Below are positions 1,649-15,135 of a stretch of 64,000 nt of DNA, piece by piece. A program made the position numbers and the translations under genes. Location: the IMG/VR virus record IMGVR_UViG_2630968933_000007, positions 1 through 64,000 of that record; one strand, written 5' to 3'. How positions within the stretch are numbered: the stretch's first letter is position 1; each line of letters begins with the position of its first letter. Below the pieces are notes generated by a model. That model made no database searches and had not been told where the DNA came from. It saw only the letters and a list, made by a program, of their open reading frames with translations. The stretch is from a virus. Its lineage: Duplodnaviria > Heunggongvirae > Uroviricota > Caudoviricetes.

Positions 1649-3594
1649 GATTTATCACCTCCGAAATTTTCAAGCCTGTTGGCAATCATGATGGCGATAT
1701 CAGGGATTGCTGGCGCTGTGGCTATACATGCGGGGTTGGCGCACAAACCATAGACGGCGGCAATCACGAGCTGTCTTTTCCAGTCGAGAGTTACTGGCTC
1801 AGAATTGGCGTCATCGCCGGACGTATCACTGCCTGGCTCGTTCTGAACAACGGTTTCGCCCTCCTGAGCGGCATCAACAGAGTTTTCCTGAATGATCTTC
1901 TCCTCAGTTTTTTTTTCCAGCTCCGGTTGCGCTACTGGCCCTGGCTGTTGCTCTTCTGACCCGTTTTGTTGCGTATCCGGGCTGTTTTGTCCCGCTTCTG
2001 GGGCAATTTGTTCCACTTTGGACTGATTCTGGTCCTCAGTGTCGCGAGTCTGGATCCCCTTCACCCACTTCGGATCAGCAGGGTTACTGATGCCTTCAAC
2101 GAATTCTCCACGCGAGGCAGCCAGTAATTTGTCGGCATCGACTGGATTTTTTGGGGGGATGTTTTCCCTGGCTTTATTGAGTTCCTCCCTCAGTTCCTGG
2201 TATTTCGTTTCTACAGATGAGACATTTTCCAGTGATTGCGTGTCCTCATTATGTTTAACTGGAATTTCTTCCACTGATTCAGGCGCTGCCTGTTCATTAG
2301 CCATTGTGTCCGATGCTTGTTGCTTTTCTTCATCGCCATGTTTTCCTTCTGCTGTTCCGCGCTGCGGCATCGGTGCTGATGAGCGACCGCAGGCAATTTC
2401 CACGATTTCCGGATCCGGGTTAGCGTGATCGGTTTCGGTCAACACTTTGTTGAGATATTCAGTCACGCGTGCCGGGATGGCCTCAATGCCGATTGGTGCT
2501 TCTTTCACGGAAGCCACCACAATGGCGCGGGAATAATCCAGCCCACCGGGCATGGCGATAAATTTGTCGCGAAAAACAGAAAAGGGCGGCTTATTCTCTG
2601 ACACGATTTCTTCAACGCGTTTTGCGTGTGCTGGGTGCAGGTTATAAATATCCACATCCATTGAACGGGCCAGAACGCCGGTGGCTACATCTCGTGCGAG
2701 TGATGTCTTATCATGTTTGAATCCTTCACCACGATCGGTAAGATTTCCGCCGCCAGCGTTAGCACCGGAAGGCGTACGGGTAATGCCTGAAACATAATTT
2801 CCGTTCTGCCATTCTTTTGTCAGCAGGCCCTGATCAAGGTAGTCAGTTTTCATCCAGGTGGAAATGAACTTGTCGAATTCAGCCGGGCTGATGCGATGAT
2901 TTGCAGAGTGGGGGAATGCTTTCCCTACAGATTCAGCCAGGCGACTAAGGTGATAGTTCGTCAGTTTATCCAGTTCATGATGTGCGGCGCGCACAGCAGT
3001 AAGCAGGCTCTGAAGGTAACTGTCCTCTGTGTCCATCTCCATACGGATCACGTTATTGCGTTGTTCTGGTGTGGCGTGATGCCGGTATTTTCCATCTTCA
3101 TCCTTGCTGAAGAAGAAGAGGTGAAGGAAGCGATGAGTAAGGCTCAGAGTGGCGACGGGAATTTCACACTCAGAACAGTCATCGTCGCTGTCCGGGGATT
3201 CGCTTTTCTCCACATCATCCGGAATAGTTCCGTCCGGGTCATCGTTGTCATCGCCAGCAGTTGTGGCATCTTCACCGTTGATGTTGTCATTGAAGGATAT
3301 AGCCATCATGGTGATGCCATCTTCCCCGCCTTTTTCATAGCGGTTGCAGAATTCAGTATCAAACACGCCTTCCGGTGGAAGGTCATTCACGACGGGGAAA
3401 TTTACGCGAACGGGTTTTTTGAAATCATCCTCGTCGTAGCCTGCATCGTCCATGGCTGCAATGCAGCGGGAAACTGCGACAGAAAGTTTTCTGGCCTCGG
3501 TCCAGAAAAAACCGCCTTTGATGCCAAGGCGTTTTCTGACTTTATCGTTTTTTGCTTCGCAGTGTAGTGCAAAAGTCTGTTTATCAGCGCTCAT
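1645..3594 (-). CDS. Hypothetical 649-aa early-left-operon protein, highly acidic segments, no recognised domain
   Basis: Long ORF translationally coupled to gam (ATGA overlap at 1645-1648); Asp/Glu-rich stretches ([30 protein letters not shown]). Confidence 0.65.
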
Positions 3595-5418: not shown

Positions 5419-6135
5419 TCAGGCGGTCAGCTCTTTAAGCTTCTGAACTGCTTTATTCATTTCATCCATACAGTCGATGAATTCGTCCAGTTTAAGCTGC
5501 ATTTTTCCGGCGGCCTGAAGAATTTCAAGTTTTAAGGGCGCAAGTTTTTTGTTGAATTCATCATCTTCCTGGCGTTTTTTCTCCGCAATTTCGGCGGCTT
5601 TCAGCAATTCTTCAGCCTGTTTTCTGAGTATTTCTGGTGAAGGTGAAACTGCTTTGAGGTTATTCACTTCAGGTTCCTGTTGTTGCAGAATTAATTTGTT
5701 GCATTCTCTGCGTGAGCGTTTCATTGCAGATTCGCACTTCTTGCAATAAATGGCTCTCCCGTCACGCTTGCTGGCATCTGAATAAAAATCATTGACTGAT
5801 TTTGTCTGCCCGCATCTGGTACATAATTTTGATTGAAGGTCCTTAATGATTGTGACGTTTCCTTCCCGCTTGGGATATCCATATTTTTTGTGGCGTAAAA
5901 AGGTTACTCCGTTACCAGAACCTTCTTTTCTGACCTTAAATACAATGATGCTTTCCCGTTTATCGATAAAATCGATGAGCTGGTTTCTCTCCTTTCCTGA
6001 CAGTTCGGCAAATGTCTTAACTTTTTTAGTAACCTCAGTAAGGCGAACGCCGTCAGGCATTTTTTCAACGAAGTTTTTAATCTCTGCAAGCGGACGCCAT
6101 AATTTTTGCGGCAAAACTGAAGGCGTGGTCATCAA
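5419..6135 (-). CDS. Hypothetical protein with CxxC...CxxC zinc-ribbon and C-terminal coiled coil
   Basis: 238-aa ORF; motifs CTRCGQ...CKKCE. Confidence 0.55.
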   Translation of the reverse strand: MMTTPSVLPQKLWRPLAEIKNFVEKMPDGVRLTEVTKKVKTFAELSGKERNQLIDFIDKRESIIVFKVRKEGSGNGVTFLRHKKYGYPKREGNVTIIKDLQSKLCTRCGQTKSVNDFYSDASKRDGRAIYCKKCESAMKRSRRECNKLILQQQEPEVNNLKAVSPSPEILRKQAEELLKAAEIAEKKRQEDDEFNKKLAPLKLEILQAAGKMQLKLDEFIDCMDEMNKAVQKLKELTA

Positions 6136-6519
6136 TCACCTCGCCGTCAGTTGTTTGGATTTCCGGTAGCCTGCCGCGTAAATGGCTACGTTTGGAAGAC
6201 ATACACCAGTTTCTGGTTGCTTATGTCCAAACTCATTCGCGTACACAATGGCCGCTCGCTCCAGATTGCGTCTGTATTCTTTCTGTTGCCAGATCACGTC
6301 CTGTGCCATGAACTTAATTGGCTTAGCGTCTTCTATGCGCTCAGGCGTTTCGTGAGTACCTTTAGCCTGAATCTGCGCTCTGCTTAGAGTAGGGCGGTGT
6401 AATACTTCTGAACTTATTGCTTCTTCGCGGGCCAGCACGCCGTTAGCTAATGCCTTTGCCTTTAAACGCTCACGACGACGAGAACGTGAATTGCCTTTGA
6501 ACTGAGTTCTGCGTGTCAT
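6136..6519 (-). CDS. N: Antitermination protein N-like (arginine-rich N-terminal motif)
   Basis: First ORF downstream of pL/OL; N-terminal RRTQFKGNSRSRRRERLKAKA resembles N-family ARM; boxB hairpin in leader. Confidence 0.55.
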   Translation of the reverse strand: MTRRTQFKGNSRSRRRERLKAKALANGVLAREEAISSEVLHRPTLSRAQIQAKGTHETPERIEDAKPIKFMAQDVIWQQKEYRRNLERAAIVYANEFGHKQPETGVCLPNVAIYAAGYRKSKQLTAR

Positions 6520-6684
6520 ATAGACCTCCTGATGAACTTTGGTGGTGTGGTAGGTGGGAGACCCATTTCGACCTGTTTCGGCCTACTTCAATTCGGCAAT
6601 AGTCCCGCAGGCCCCGCCGCTTTACGTGCGACATATTCCCGTCCATGAACCCTTCACCACACCCCAAAGTTCACTTTGGTTATT

Positions 6685-6699
6685 GCGCTTTGTCAGCGC
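6685..6699 (-). promoter_or_regulatory. nutL boxB-like hairpin (GCGCUGACAAAGCGC, P22-type)
   Basis: 5-bp stem with GACAA loop in the pL leader; similar hairpin in nutR position at 8868-8882. Confidence 0.5.
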
Positions 6700-6767
6700 C
6701 GTAGATTCATATTTGAATCGTTGTATATTCACCGCCCAGGTGAGTAGTGCGTCCTGCTGATGTGTTT

Positions 6768-6830
6768 AGTATCACCGCCAGTGGTATTTATGTCAACACC
6801 GCCAGAGATAATTTATCACCGCAGATGGTT
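6768..6830 (-). promoter_or_regulatory. OL1-OL2-OL3 operators and pL promoter (lambda-type)
   Basis: tatcaccgccagtggta (6770-6786), caacaccgccagagata (6794-6810), tatcaccgcagatggtt (6814-6830); minus-strand -35 TTGACA at 6791-6796 and -10 GATACT at 6768-6773. Confidence 0.85.
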
Positions 6831-6969
6831 ATCTGTATGTTTTTTATATGGATTTATTTTTTGCAGGGTTGAGTGGCTTGGGAGGTGATCGAGAGATCTG
6901 AATTGCGATGTTTAGTGAGTTGTATCTATTTATTTTTCAATAAATACATTTGGTTATGTGTCTTTAGGT

Positions 6970-6979
6970 GGGGGGGGGG
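6970..6979. repeat. Homopolymeric G10 tract
   Basis: Ten consecutive G between the cI-operon terminator and OL. Confidence 0.95.
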
Positions 6980-6993
6980 TGAGGCAAAGAAAA

Positions 6994-7011
6994 CCCGGCT
7001 CTGTGGCCGGG
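6994..7011 (-). terminator. Intrinsic terminator of the cI operon (cccggc/gccggg stem, U-run on minus strand)
   Basis: Hairpin immediately after stop of 7020..7781 gene, followed on the minus strand by ttttcttt. Confidence 0.55.
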
Positions 7012-7019
7012 AATAACAT

Positions 7020-7781
7020 TTAGGAATCAAGGTCAGGTAGCATGATTTTCTCAATCAACGTCAATGCCCTTTGGTCTCGTTCAGCAAAATATTTAGGAGC
7101 GTACTGAGGCAGCCACACTTCGTTGAAGTGTTGTTTGAAATCTGCAAGATATTCGTTTGGGTATAGACGTACCGGGAATGTCCGGCCATCTGGGTACTCA
7201 TGGTTATATGTTGGGAATGTCTTCGGCTCAACCCCCCGGTTGTCACGGAGCCATTGCGAGAAAACCCTACCCTCTGAAATATCAGGGACCATTTTTTCTG
7301 GCAGCGTATATCCGGCCTGTTCAAGTGGCGCAACCAAGTTAAACGTCAGTTCATTAAGCATAGAAAAGTGCGTATGAGGAACTCTGCCTCGGTTTGTCAT
7401 ATACCGCTTAAGGTGGATAGGGAGTTCGGCAGGCGCTCTTTCACCTGACATCCACTCACGCACCCATCTCGATACTTGCACTGCAAATTTTGGAGATAGC
7501 CACTGAGCTAAATTAATTGCGATGTCTGGATGAACCCAAGTCCCTTGATTCTCTGCTCTTCCGCCTTTAAATGATTGAATTAACTCCGATATGGGAATCC
7601 CCATATCGCGTGATAATTCATCAAAAAAATCTTGTGTTGTTTTTAGTCGTGTATAGTCAGCAAGTAGCTTCCCCGCAGACTTGCACATCGCGGTGGCATT
7701 GATGTATCCGTCTTTGGTGCGAAGATGGATGACTTCTCCATCAACTTCTCTAGCGATTAATGCAAGTTGAAACTGTGTCAT
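7020..7781 (-). CDS. KilA-N domain protein with C-terminal domain of unknown function, in the rexAB position downstream of cI
   Basis: 253-aa ORF starting 31 bp after cI stop, same strand; N-terminal ...GYINATAMCKSAGK... region resembles KilA-N. Confidence 0.75.
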   Translation of the reverse strand: MTQFQLALIAREVDGEVIHLRTKDGYINATAMCKSAGKLLADYTRLKTTQDFFDELSRDMGIPISELIQSFKGGRAENQGTWVHPDIAINLAQWLSPKFAVQVSRWVREWMSGERAPAELPIHLKRYMTNRGRVPHTHFSMLNELTFNLVAPLEQAGYTLPEKMVPDISEGRVFSQWLRDNRGVEPKTFPTYNHEYPDGRTFPVRLYPNEYLADFKQHFNEVWLPQYAPKYFAERDQRALTLIEKIMLPDLDS

Positions 7782-7812
7782 AAATCATCCTATTACGTGA
7801 AAAATAAAACAA

Positions 7813-8529
<717 letters not shown>

Positions 8530-8535
8530 TTAAAT

Positions 8536-8601
8536 CTATCACCGCAAGGGATAAATATCTAACACCGTGCGTGTTGACTATTTTACCTCTAGCGGTGATA
8601 A
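8536..8601. promoter_or_regulatory. OR3-OR2-OR1 operators with PRM/PR promoters
   Basis: tatcaccgcaagggata (8536-8552), taacaccgtgcgtgttg (8560-8576), tacctctagcggtgata (8584-8600); PR -35 TTGACT 8574-8579, -10 GATAAT 8596-8601. Confidence 0.9.
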
Positions 8602-8626
8602 TGGTTGCATGTACTAAGGAGGTTGT

Positions 8627-8827
8627 ATGGAACAACGCATAACCCTGAAAGATTATGCAATACGCTTTGGGCAAACCAAGACGGCTAAAGATCTCGGCGT
8701 ATATCAAAGCGCGATTAACAAGGCCATTCATGCAGGCCGAAAGATTTTTTTAACTATAAACGCTGATGGAAGCGTTTATGCGGAAGAAATAAAGCCCTTC
8801 CCAAGTAACAAAAAAACAACTGCATAA
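8627..8827 (+). CDS. cro: Cro repressor
   Basis: 66-aa [56 protein letters not shown] matches lambda Cro; SD taaggagg. Confidence 0.95.
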
Positions 8828-8836
8828 GTAACACCG

Positions 8837-8882
8837 CTCTTTTCACAATGGACATTCGTCCTACGTCGCTGACAAAGCGAGT
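8837..8882 (+). promoter_or_regulatory. nutR-like site (boxA-like cgctctttt, boxB hairpin tcgctgacaaagcga)
   Basis: boxA-like at 8837-8845, hairpin with GACAA loop at 8868-8882, between cro and cII. Confidence 0.5.
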
Positions 8883-8965
8883 CCCAAGATATCTGACCAA
8901 CTAAGGCCATATGCGTTTCCACGCATACCTTTCAACTAGCTATTCACTATTGGAAATCATAAGAA

Positions 8966-12541: not shown

Positions 12542-13216
12542 TCATATAGAGGCTGAATCTGATCTTTTTTGTTCACGTCTGGCTTCCACCATTGCAGGCA
12601 GAGTGAAGGCGTAGACTAAAAACATTTCGGTAAAACTCAGGATCTGGCTTGCCTCAATTGGTGTGAAAACTTCATCTGTATGAACTGCTTTATTGGCATC
12701 AATTCGTACAATATGAGCCCATTCCTTCATCTGTTCAGTGATCAGGCCTTTTTTGTAAATCATCTGAATACGTTGCGACAGCGATTCTTTTCCTGCTTCA
12801 TCGCCGAGCAGTTTTTTCGTGGAGATATCGAGGACTCTGCGACAAAGAATAACCACTGTGTCGTACCGCCTCCTCTGTAAATCCTCTTTTGCCTCAACAA
12901 AAGTACGGTCTGCAACCGGGGGCGTATATTCTGGTGCGGTAATTTTTTTGACCACAGGATAGATCTTGCGGAAACGGTACTGGCTATTTCCTGAAATCAG
13001 AATATCGAGGTCTTTTTTCTGGCTTTCCGCCATGGGACCGTGATAGTGGTCTGATGGGATTTCAACAATAGCAACACCTCCTCGATGACAACTTCTGCAT
13101 ACAAAAGCGACGTTAAAAAAAGGTGTTTTTTCAATTTGTTTTTCGGCAAATGCCTCAATAACAGCTCGCTCTTTTAAACAGTGCGGGCATGTGATATCAA
13201 AGGAGACTAAACCCAT
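12542..13216 (-). CDS. Zinc-ribbon protein with C-terminal DUF4145-like domain (start taken at MGLVSFDITCPHC)
   Basis: CPHC...CRSCH zinc ribbon; C-terminal ...CRRVLD...WAHIVRIDANKAVHTDEV...ILSFTEMFLVYAF pattern recalled as DUF4145-like; opposite strand to flanking operon. Confidence 0.6.
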   Translation of the reverse strand: MGLVSFDITCPHCLKERAVIEAFAEKQIEKTPFFNVAFVCRSCHRGGVAIVEIPSDHYHGPMAESQKKDLDILISGNSQYRFRKIYPVVKKITAPEYTPPVADRTFVEAKEDLQRRRYDTVVILCRRVLDISTKKLLGDEAGKESLSQRIQMIYKKGLITEQMKEWAHIVRIDANKAVHTDEVFTPIEASQILSFTEMFLVYAFTLPAMVEARREQKRSDSASI

Positions 13217-13460
13217 GGATATTCCTCGCGAAATTAAAGAAATTAACGAAATCATTGAGGTTACTGATCGCCCCGAGTTTACCCTCATGCGTCGTTATGA
13301 AACAGGAACCGACGAACAAAAATACATCATGGTTGCAGCATTGGCTGTGATGGCGATAGAAAGGGAGCGAAGGGAAAAGGACGTAATGGTTATTCCTGAG
13401 AGAAATGATTCACCGGATTTGAGATGGCAGGAGCCGGAGTGGGATGTGGTAATCCGGTGA
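13215..13460 (+). CDS. Hypothetical small protein (uncertain; start codon overlaps divergent start of 12542..13216)
   Basis: SD aggag 9 nt upstream of ATG 13215; 81 aa. Confidence 0.3.
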   Translation: MDIPREIKEINEIIEVTDRPEFTLMRRYETGTDEQKYIMVAALAVMAIERERREKDVMVIPERNDSPDLRWQEPEWDVVIR

Positions 13461-14463: not shown

Positions 14464-15135
14464 ATGACAACTCAAGTTTCTGTTGAAACACTCTCCACGA
14501 TTACTTACAAGCAGATCCCCGTTATCACTACTGAACTTTTGGCGCACCTTTACGGCACAGAAGCTATTCGTATTCGCCAGAATCACCACGAAAACAAAGG
14601 TCGTTTCATTGAGGAAAAACACTTCTTCAAACTTGAAGGTGAAACTTTACGTGAGTTCAAGCACAGAGTAGCTTTTAACTACTCTGTGAAAATTGCCCGT
14701 AACGTTCGCTCCCTCATCCTATGGACAGAACGCGGCGCAGCCCGTCATGCAAAAATGCTCGAAACCGATCGGGCGTGGGAAGTGTTCGAAAAACTGGAAG
14801 ACTGCTATTTCAGCCAGGGAAAAACAACACAAACCGAACAGCAGTCGCAGATTCAGCCACAATTCACAGCCGAGGAAATCATCCTCCTTTGCTACATGCA
14901 ACTCTGGATGGAAAAAGCCCGGGACCTTAGCAAGCAGCTGTACCCCATAATGAAAGAGCTGAACTCCTCATACACGAACAAGCTGTATGACATTGCGTTT
15001 GAGACTATCTACATGGTGAAGAAGAACAGAGACGCGCTACTAAGGGAGGTAACACGTCTCGACATGTCAAGTTCCGTTATCCAGCGGGCCATGCCAATGC
15101 TGAAAAGCCTGCGGGCAAGACAATTTGAATTCTGA
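14464..15135 (+). CDS. Antirepressor-like protein (N-terminal ORF6N/Rha-like, C-terminal domain shared with the ant gene at 57722..58351)
   Basis: 223-aa ORF; last ~95 codons ~95% identical to C-terminus of 57722..58351 ORF. Confidence 0.6.
   Translation: MTTQVSVETLSTITYKQIPVITTELLAHLYGTEAIRIRQNHHENKGRFIEEKHFFKLEGETLREFKHRVAFNYSVKIARNVRSLILWTERGAARHAKMLETDRAWEVFEKLEDCYFSQGKTTQTEQQSQIQPQFTAEEIILLCYMQLWMEKARDLSKQLYPIMKELNSSYTNKLYDIAFETIYMVKKNRDALLREVTRLDMSSSVIQRAMPMLKSLRARQFEF

Follow-up and report, generated by a model that had tools for sequence, protein, structure and literature searches.

A putative BstA-family prophage defence gene with a KilA-N domain in the rexAB position of a lambda-type immunity region

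Results

We analysed a 64,000-nucleotide (nt) stretch of DNA from a virus of the Caudoviricetes (IMG/VR record IMGVR_UViG_2630968933_000007, positions 1 to 64,000), referred to here as the window. Our subject is a gene for a 253-amino-acid (aa) protein, termed bstA-like, that lies directly behind a lambda-type cI repressor gene. A preliminary description of this DNA had read cI and both operator regions as lambda sequence and had reported that rexA and rexB were missing. Comparison with the lambda genome (NC_001416) bore out both statements. The two cI proteins are 99.2% identical in aa sequence. At the DNA level, window positions 7812-8841, with the OR operators, match lambda 37226-38255 at 96.8% identity, and window positions 6746-7011, with the OL operators, match lambda 35567-35824 at 89.5%. 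Between these blocks, lambda 35825-37225, which carries rexB and rexA (35825-37114), is swapped for window 7012-7811, a cassette of approximately 800 base pairs (bp). Homology to lambda ends exactly at the cI stop and restarts at the terminator. No lambda match was detected in window 7012-7811, and no Rex family was present among the Pfam, PHROG and PADLOC matches.

The cassette contains a single open reading frame (ORF) on the same strand as cI, and we confirmed its coordinates (Table 1). Its ATG (7781) is separated from the cI stop (7813-7815) by 31 bp. The preliminary description had placed the first terminator only after this ORF, which agrees with our scan of positions 6400-8900. The hairpin at 7011-6994, 8 bp beyond the stop of the ORF, was the only terminator-like site on the minus strand. 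It reads CCCGGC-CACAGA-GCCGGG followed by TTTTCTTT, with six G-C pairs, a loop of 6 nt and a T-rich tail. Alignment with the terminators of lambda, strain O178:H19 2012C-4431 and Escherichia coli DY612 identified it as the counterpart of the lambda terminator located 3' of rexB. In the same scan, PL was the only promoter-like site on the minus strand, with none in or near the cI-bstA spacer; PRM was not detected by this consensus promoter scan. Just 3' of the terminator, the window has a run of ten G residues (C10 on the minus strand) at 6970-6979, a position that holds mixed sequence in lambda, O178:H19 and DY612. This run may be prone to slippage or may have arisen as an artefact of sequencing.

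Table 1. Features of the immunity region and of the bstA-like gene in the window
Feature	Position	Strand	Basis or remark
bstA-like gene (KilA-N + BstA_C, 253 aa)	7020..7781	-	ORF list, ATG start
KilA-N DNA-binding domain, aa 13-112	7446..7745	-	Pfam PF04383, E=8.2e-27
BstA_C domain, aa ~120-247	7041..7424	-	PADLOC, BLASTP, PF26567 on close homologues
cI-bstA spacer, 31 bp	7782..7812	-	ribosome-binding site AGGA at 7788-7791
Lambda-type cI repressor, 237 aa, upstream in the inferred operon	7813..8526	-	Pfam HTH_3 + Peptidase_S24
Intrinsic terminator after the cI-bstA unit	6986..7011 (hairpin 7011..6994)	-	terminator scan
OR/PRM/PR region, inferred source of the lysogenic cI-bstA transcript	8527..8626	.	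inside the 96.8% lambda-identical block covering OR1-3
PR-like promoter	8574-8602	+	promoter scan
OL/PL region 3' of the terminator	6746..6993	-	89.5% identity to lambda 35567-35824 (OL1-3)
PL-like promoter	6796..6768	-	promoter scan

The N-terminal part of the protein had been described as KilA-N-like, and Pfam assigned it to this family. A full-length AlphaFold2 (AF2) model consists of two well-folded domains joined by a linker of lower confidence (~aa 111-120). The KilA-N part was modelled with a predicted local distance difference test (pLDDT) score above 90, and a Foldseek search against the PDB matched it to the APSES-type DNA-binding domains of Mbp1, PCG2 and Bqt4. These proteins and the phage KilA-N proteins share with the window protein the fold and the Pfam family of aa 13-112, but they lack BstA_C and, rather than serving in defence, are regulators or proteins whose role is unknown.

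The C-terminal ~140 aa, which the preliminary description could not relate to anything, correspond to the BstA_C domain (PF26567; "BstA-like C-terminal domain" in UniRef). We based this assignment on precomputed annotations together with PADLOC, PHROG, BLASTP and hhalign. The PADLOC model for BstA matched aa 120-237 (E=2.5e-20), and BLASTP aligned aa 133-251 with aa 171-302 of BstA-BTP1, the protein of Salmonella prophage BTP1 (st313-td), at 29% identity (E=5e-15). PHROG 6287, "BstA abortive infection system, replication inhibitor", to which BstA-BTP1 is assigned too, was matched over aa 1-252 (E=1.8e-82). In the precomputed Pfam annotations, PF04383 and PF26567 occur as a pair on all close homologues, while PF26567 occurs alone on all BstA-BTP1 relatives. 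When 36 members of the KilA-N + BstA_C clade were compared with 36 BstA-BTP1 relatives by hhalign, the alignment extended over 225 columns and both domains (97.8% probability, E=1.2e-12). Thirteen residues are invariant across both clades in the joint alignment of these 72 sequences: R126, N130, P135, E144, D167, S169, G171, W177, H194, Y207, P208, F215 and Y231. An NCBIfam search of the 253-aa protein gave no match.

Using the 72-sequence alignment, AF2 modelled aa 115-253 as a helical domain with a beta-hairpin (pLDDT 94; predicted template modelling score [pTM] 0.86). Searches for relatives of this domain were negative: no BFVD entry scored below E=0.1, a sequence-profile search of the PDB returned nothing below E=0.07, and no solved structural relative was found. 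An antirepressor-type C-terminal domain, raised in the preliminary description as a possible routine function, was likewise not found. Pfam matches to ANT, KilA-C and P22_AR_C were absent for the whole protein and for aa 115-253, even at E values up to 10, and the antirepressor entries of BFVD were not significant (E>0.6, probability <0.3). We rejected an antirepressor identity on these grounds. Taken together, the profile comparisons indicate that the 253-aa protein is a divergent member of the described BstA family. The novelty is modest and consists of a clade with a Pfam-detectable KilA-N domain, ~50 aa shorter than, and 22-29% identical to, BstA-BTP1 and the BstA-Ec-type protein of O178:H19.

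BstA was described by Owen et al. in 2021 as a single-protein, prophage-encoded abortive-infection system (PMC8585504). It is highly expressed in lysogens, co-localizes with phage DNA and prevents phage DNA replication, and it protects against P22, ES18, 9NA, lambda, phi80, P1 and T7 (PMC8585504). BstA homologues sharing just ~40% identity with one another were all protective, lambda being among the phages they act against, and every one of them is matched by a self-immunity element, aba, of its own (PMC8585504). The gene is typically found 3' of the repressor, between cI and N, and the authors noted that this is the rexAB slot of lambda (PMC8585504). Their Table S1 ends with matches confined to the C-terminal region, in Hafnia, Thiolapillus, Psychrobacter and Geminocystis (PMC8585504); in our tblastn search the KilA-N + BstA_C clade showed up likewise, as C-terminal-only matches.

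Like BstA-BTP1, the window protein is the product of a single gene that falls into PHROG 6287 and lies on the same strand as the prophage repressor gene, directly 3' of it in the cI-N interval, with an intrinsic terminator at its end. However, BstA-BTP1 is longer (307 aa versus 253 aa) and has no match in our local Pfam library, whereas the N terminus of the window protein is a canonical Pfam KilA-N domain. The closest positional parallel is the lambda-immunity prophage of E. coli O178:H19 2012C-4431, which Owen et al. include in their Table S1. Its cI is 99.6% identical to that of the window, and its breakpoints are those of the window: homology is lost at the cI stop and begins again at the terminator that both have. 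The occupant of the slot in O178:H19 is nevertheless a classical BstA of 301 aa, which is 42% identical to BstA-BTP1 and 22% identical to the window protein across the C-terminal 128 aa only.

The bstA-like gene is real and under strong purifying selection. Its product is 100% identical to a "hypothetical protein" encoded by an unnamed gene of Escherichia phage PhiR5_2, a phage whose complete genome is on deposit and whose recorded host is E. coli K-12 MG1655, and also to WP_000191544.1, a "KilA-N domain-containing protein" of E. coli ML35. The ratio of nonsynonymous to synonymous substitution rates (dN/dS) was 0.009 relative to the DY612 allele (96% identical) and 0.03 relative to the common E. 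coli allele (78% identical). Of 5426 complete E. coli genomes, 139 carried an intact related ORF, and the protein database contained 2748 homologues. Approximately 60% aa identity is retained in alpha-, beta- and gamma-proteobacteria, including Vibrio, Shewanella, Rhizobium, Paraburkholderia, Neisseria and Lysobacter. The labels that RefSeq and GenBank give to this clade are limited to "DNA-binding protein", "KilA-N domain-containing" and "hypothetical".

Some relatives have an altered organization. In E. coli H6 (locus L012, 3561-4322) and H5, the annotation splits a gene that is otherwise 96% identical into two 113-aa ORFs, one for the KilA-N part and one for a "hypothetical" part; the likely cause is a frameshift that made it a pseudogene, or else an error in the assembly. 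Among P0249, P0241, P0248 and P0253, one representative of 1230 aa carries the entire KilA-N + BstA_C unit at its C terminus (aa 976-1216), and 3-5 KilA-N repeats in tandem are present in several proteins of 600-900 aa.

The same-strand position 3' of a repressor gene recurs in Proteus phage vB_BPM-V3, E. coli DY612 and E. coli H6. The Proteus phage has a 79.7%-identical homologue behind a cI sharing 62% identity with that of the window. In DY612 and H6 the cassette is ~96% identical in DNA; the repressor of DY612 is 43% identical to the window cI, and that of H6 is an XRE-type protein without significant similarity to it. The mobile unit comprises ~26 nt of upstream DNA, the ORF and the terminator, and it travels to prophages with other repressors. 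Ahead of the cassette, both H6 (L012, ~3493-3530, e.g., CAGTGGCCAGATGATACGTTTGGGTGA) and DY612 (L013, ~3470-3500) retain a relic of the 3' end of a lambda-type cI. The presence of this relic beside an unrelated repressor suggests that the cassette and its flanks were taken up together from an immunity region of the lambda type.

Other phages carry different genes in this slot. In mEp234 and HK106, HicAB lies between the same conserved flanks (the cI 3' end and the terminator/OL region) as exchangeable cargo, and its genes are unrelated to the bstA-like gene. HK544, HK542, HK244, mEp332 and CL707 have unrelated ORFs between the conserved flanks, and the window ORF was found in none of these seven phages. 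Known cargoes of the cI-terminator slot are rexAB, HicAB, classical BstA, the window gene and others. Since classical BstA sits in O178:H19 with identical breakpoints, the cI 3' end and the terminator are, to judge from the alignments, the anchors for cargo exchange.

The link of the bstA-like gene to a repressor is not obligatory. The copies of Rhizobium rhizogenes (L008) and Limnobaculum (L009) lie directly 3' of a primase gene in AlpA-primase elements. The adjacent primase genes are of the Prim-Pol/AAA_25 or the Zn_Ribbon_Prim/Toprim type, and an integrase gene was observed only at the Rhizobium locus, not in Limnobaculum. These look like small integrative or satellite-like elements.

We also noted other accessory genes in the window. 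A 238-aa ORF on the minus strand (5419-6135) abuts the N-like gene (6136-6519) and is a member of PHROG 2539 (E=8.5e-130), whose function is unknown. The middle of its product resembles a zinc ribbon and weakly matches the endonuclease VII, HNH and Lar-like families; neither PADLOC nor NCBIfam gave a match for the protein. In the nin-like region, an oppositely oriented gene (12542-13288, minus strand) codes for a DUF4145 protein (Pfam E=4.9e-9) without a PADLOC match. A HigB/HigA toxin-antitoxin pair adjoins it, as annotated in PhiR5_2 (L001, 2660-3188), and the two may form a second accessory-gene cluster of the same phage. The protein encoded at 14464-15135 on the plus strand combines ORF6N and P22_AR_C domains, from which we take it that the phage has a separate antirepressor-like gene; it also shows weak matches to the PADLOC candidate PDC-S05.

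Discussion

The preliminary description had proposed a lysogen-expressed, single-gene abortive-infection factor, and homology together with synteny lends support to this candidate. We consider it probable that the bstA-like gene is a prophage defence gene of the BstA family with a BstA-like abortive-infection mechanism. The anatomy of the locus, its homology, the recurring synteny and the selective constraint are the observations on which this proposal is built; expression, an anti-phage phenotype, a replication block and an aba element would follow from them by analogy.

Because the gap behind cI is 31 bp, no terminator intervenes, and PRM-cI-rex of lambda provides a precedent, we infer expression in the lysogen. 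There, PRM, joined by PRE while lysogeny is being established, would most likely drive a transcript of both cI and the bstA-like gene, with the lambda-type terminator (7011-6994) as its end point. The lysogen would then contain the protein constitutively. According to our model, the KilA-N domain would bind DNA, and the protein would go to the replicating DNA of a superinfecting phage, as BstA-BTP1 does. The BstA_C domain would halt replication of that DNA, and the infected cell would die without releasing progeny. A cognate aba at the 5' end of the locus would let the resident phage evade the protein that it encodes. Lambda RexA/RexB would be a parallel in genomic slot, in co-transcription with cI and in lysogen-expressed abortive infection, the last two being only predicted for the window gene. 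In contrast, the Rex proteins have no sequence relationship to the window protein and represent two genes with a membrane-channel mechanism, as opposed to one gene for a DNA-binding-type protein.

The aba of BTP1 is a 63-bp DNA element, made up of 29 bp upstream of bstA and the first 34 bp of the gene, that neutralizes BstA for the resident phage (PMC8585504). Such elements are allele-specific, and that of BTP1 is the only one mapped (PMC8585504). By analogy, the place to expect an aba in the window would be the 31-bp spacer together with ~34 nt at the start of the gene. Repeats near the start codon were either short and at chance level or explained by the encoded peptide. One of them, the GAGAAGT direct repeat at 7732-7750, was rejected as a DNA element, as it encodes the repeated E-V/G-E-V of a beta-hairpin, a feature that other alleles share at the protein level. 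The ~26 nt that co-migrate with the gene would be accounted for by the ribosome-binding site alone. As PhiR5_2 is a complete phage genome with K-12 MG1655 as its host, this phage either escapes its own BstA-like protein or is no target of it.

Several points weigh against our proposal. Plain BLASTP to BstA-BTP1 sees the C-terminal half only, identity to BstA-BTP1 and to the O178:H19 BstA does not exceed 22-29%, and the PADLOC BstA model spans only 42% of the length of the protein. The most frequent allele in E. coli (117 genomes) does not follow a repressor gene; it stands alone, in the opposite orientation, in a nin-like region. Some homologues are found in non-phage chromosomal settings, e.g., a Shewanella copy without phage neighbours. 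The aba sequence of BTP1 and its CCCGCC terminal direct repeats, which BTP1 has, are missing from the window, and an alignment of the upstream DNA of four alleles revealed only the ribosome-binding site as shared; with allele-specific elements of which one has been mapped, such sequence comparison cannot decide the matter. In the literature, we found no report of the KilA-N + BstA_C clade being tested, nor any paper on PhiR5_2, on "BstA-like" proteins or citing PF26567. Finally, the molecular mechanism of BstA itself is unresolved (PMC8585504).

The gene could also encode a defence protein that works unlike BstA-BTP1. The canonical KilA-N domain could give it another DNA target or trigger, BstA_C could be a sensor of a small molecule or nucleotide instead of blocking replication directly, and there would perhaps be no need for an aba. 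We regard such a protein as unlikely.

More doubtful still is a role as a DNA-binding regulator of the KilA-N type, or as an antirepressor-like protein, in the control of the phage itself or of host genes without any part in exclusion. Many phage regulators contain KilA-N domains, the first 116 aa match PHROG 129 ("transcriptional regulator", E=8e-24), and the database labels go no further than DNA binding or KilA-N. On the other hand, the C-terminal domain is BstA_C and not of the Ant or KilA-C type. Moreover, an antirepressor co-transcribed with the repressor would defeat itself, and the phage already has its antirepressor-type gene at 14464-15135. That the gene is an inert passenger or a decaying relic between two recombination-prone flanks, as the split ORFs of H6 and H5 and the known mosaic hotspot might suggest, is highly improbable in view of the dN/dS values, the intact ORFs in E. 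coli genomes and the identity held across proteobacterial classes.

With a BstA-family defence gene as the favoured interpretation, the finding adds nothing new conceptually, as BstA has been published and its authors had already noted the sharing of the rexAB slot. Its value lies in annotation and tractability. The clade is widespread and is labelled only as KilA-N or hypothetical, and the partial coverage by the PADLOC BstA model means that censuses of defence systems may miss it. A BstA relative in a coliphage with lambda immunity that grows on K-12 would be a handy system for studying the replication block attributed to BstA_C and self-immunity.
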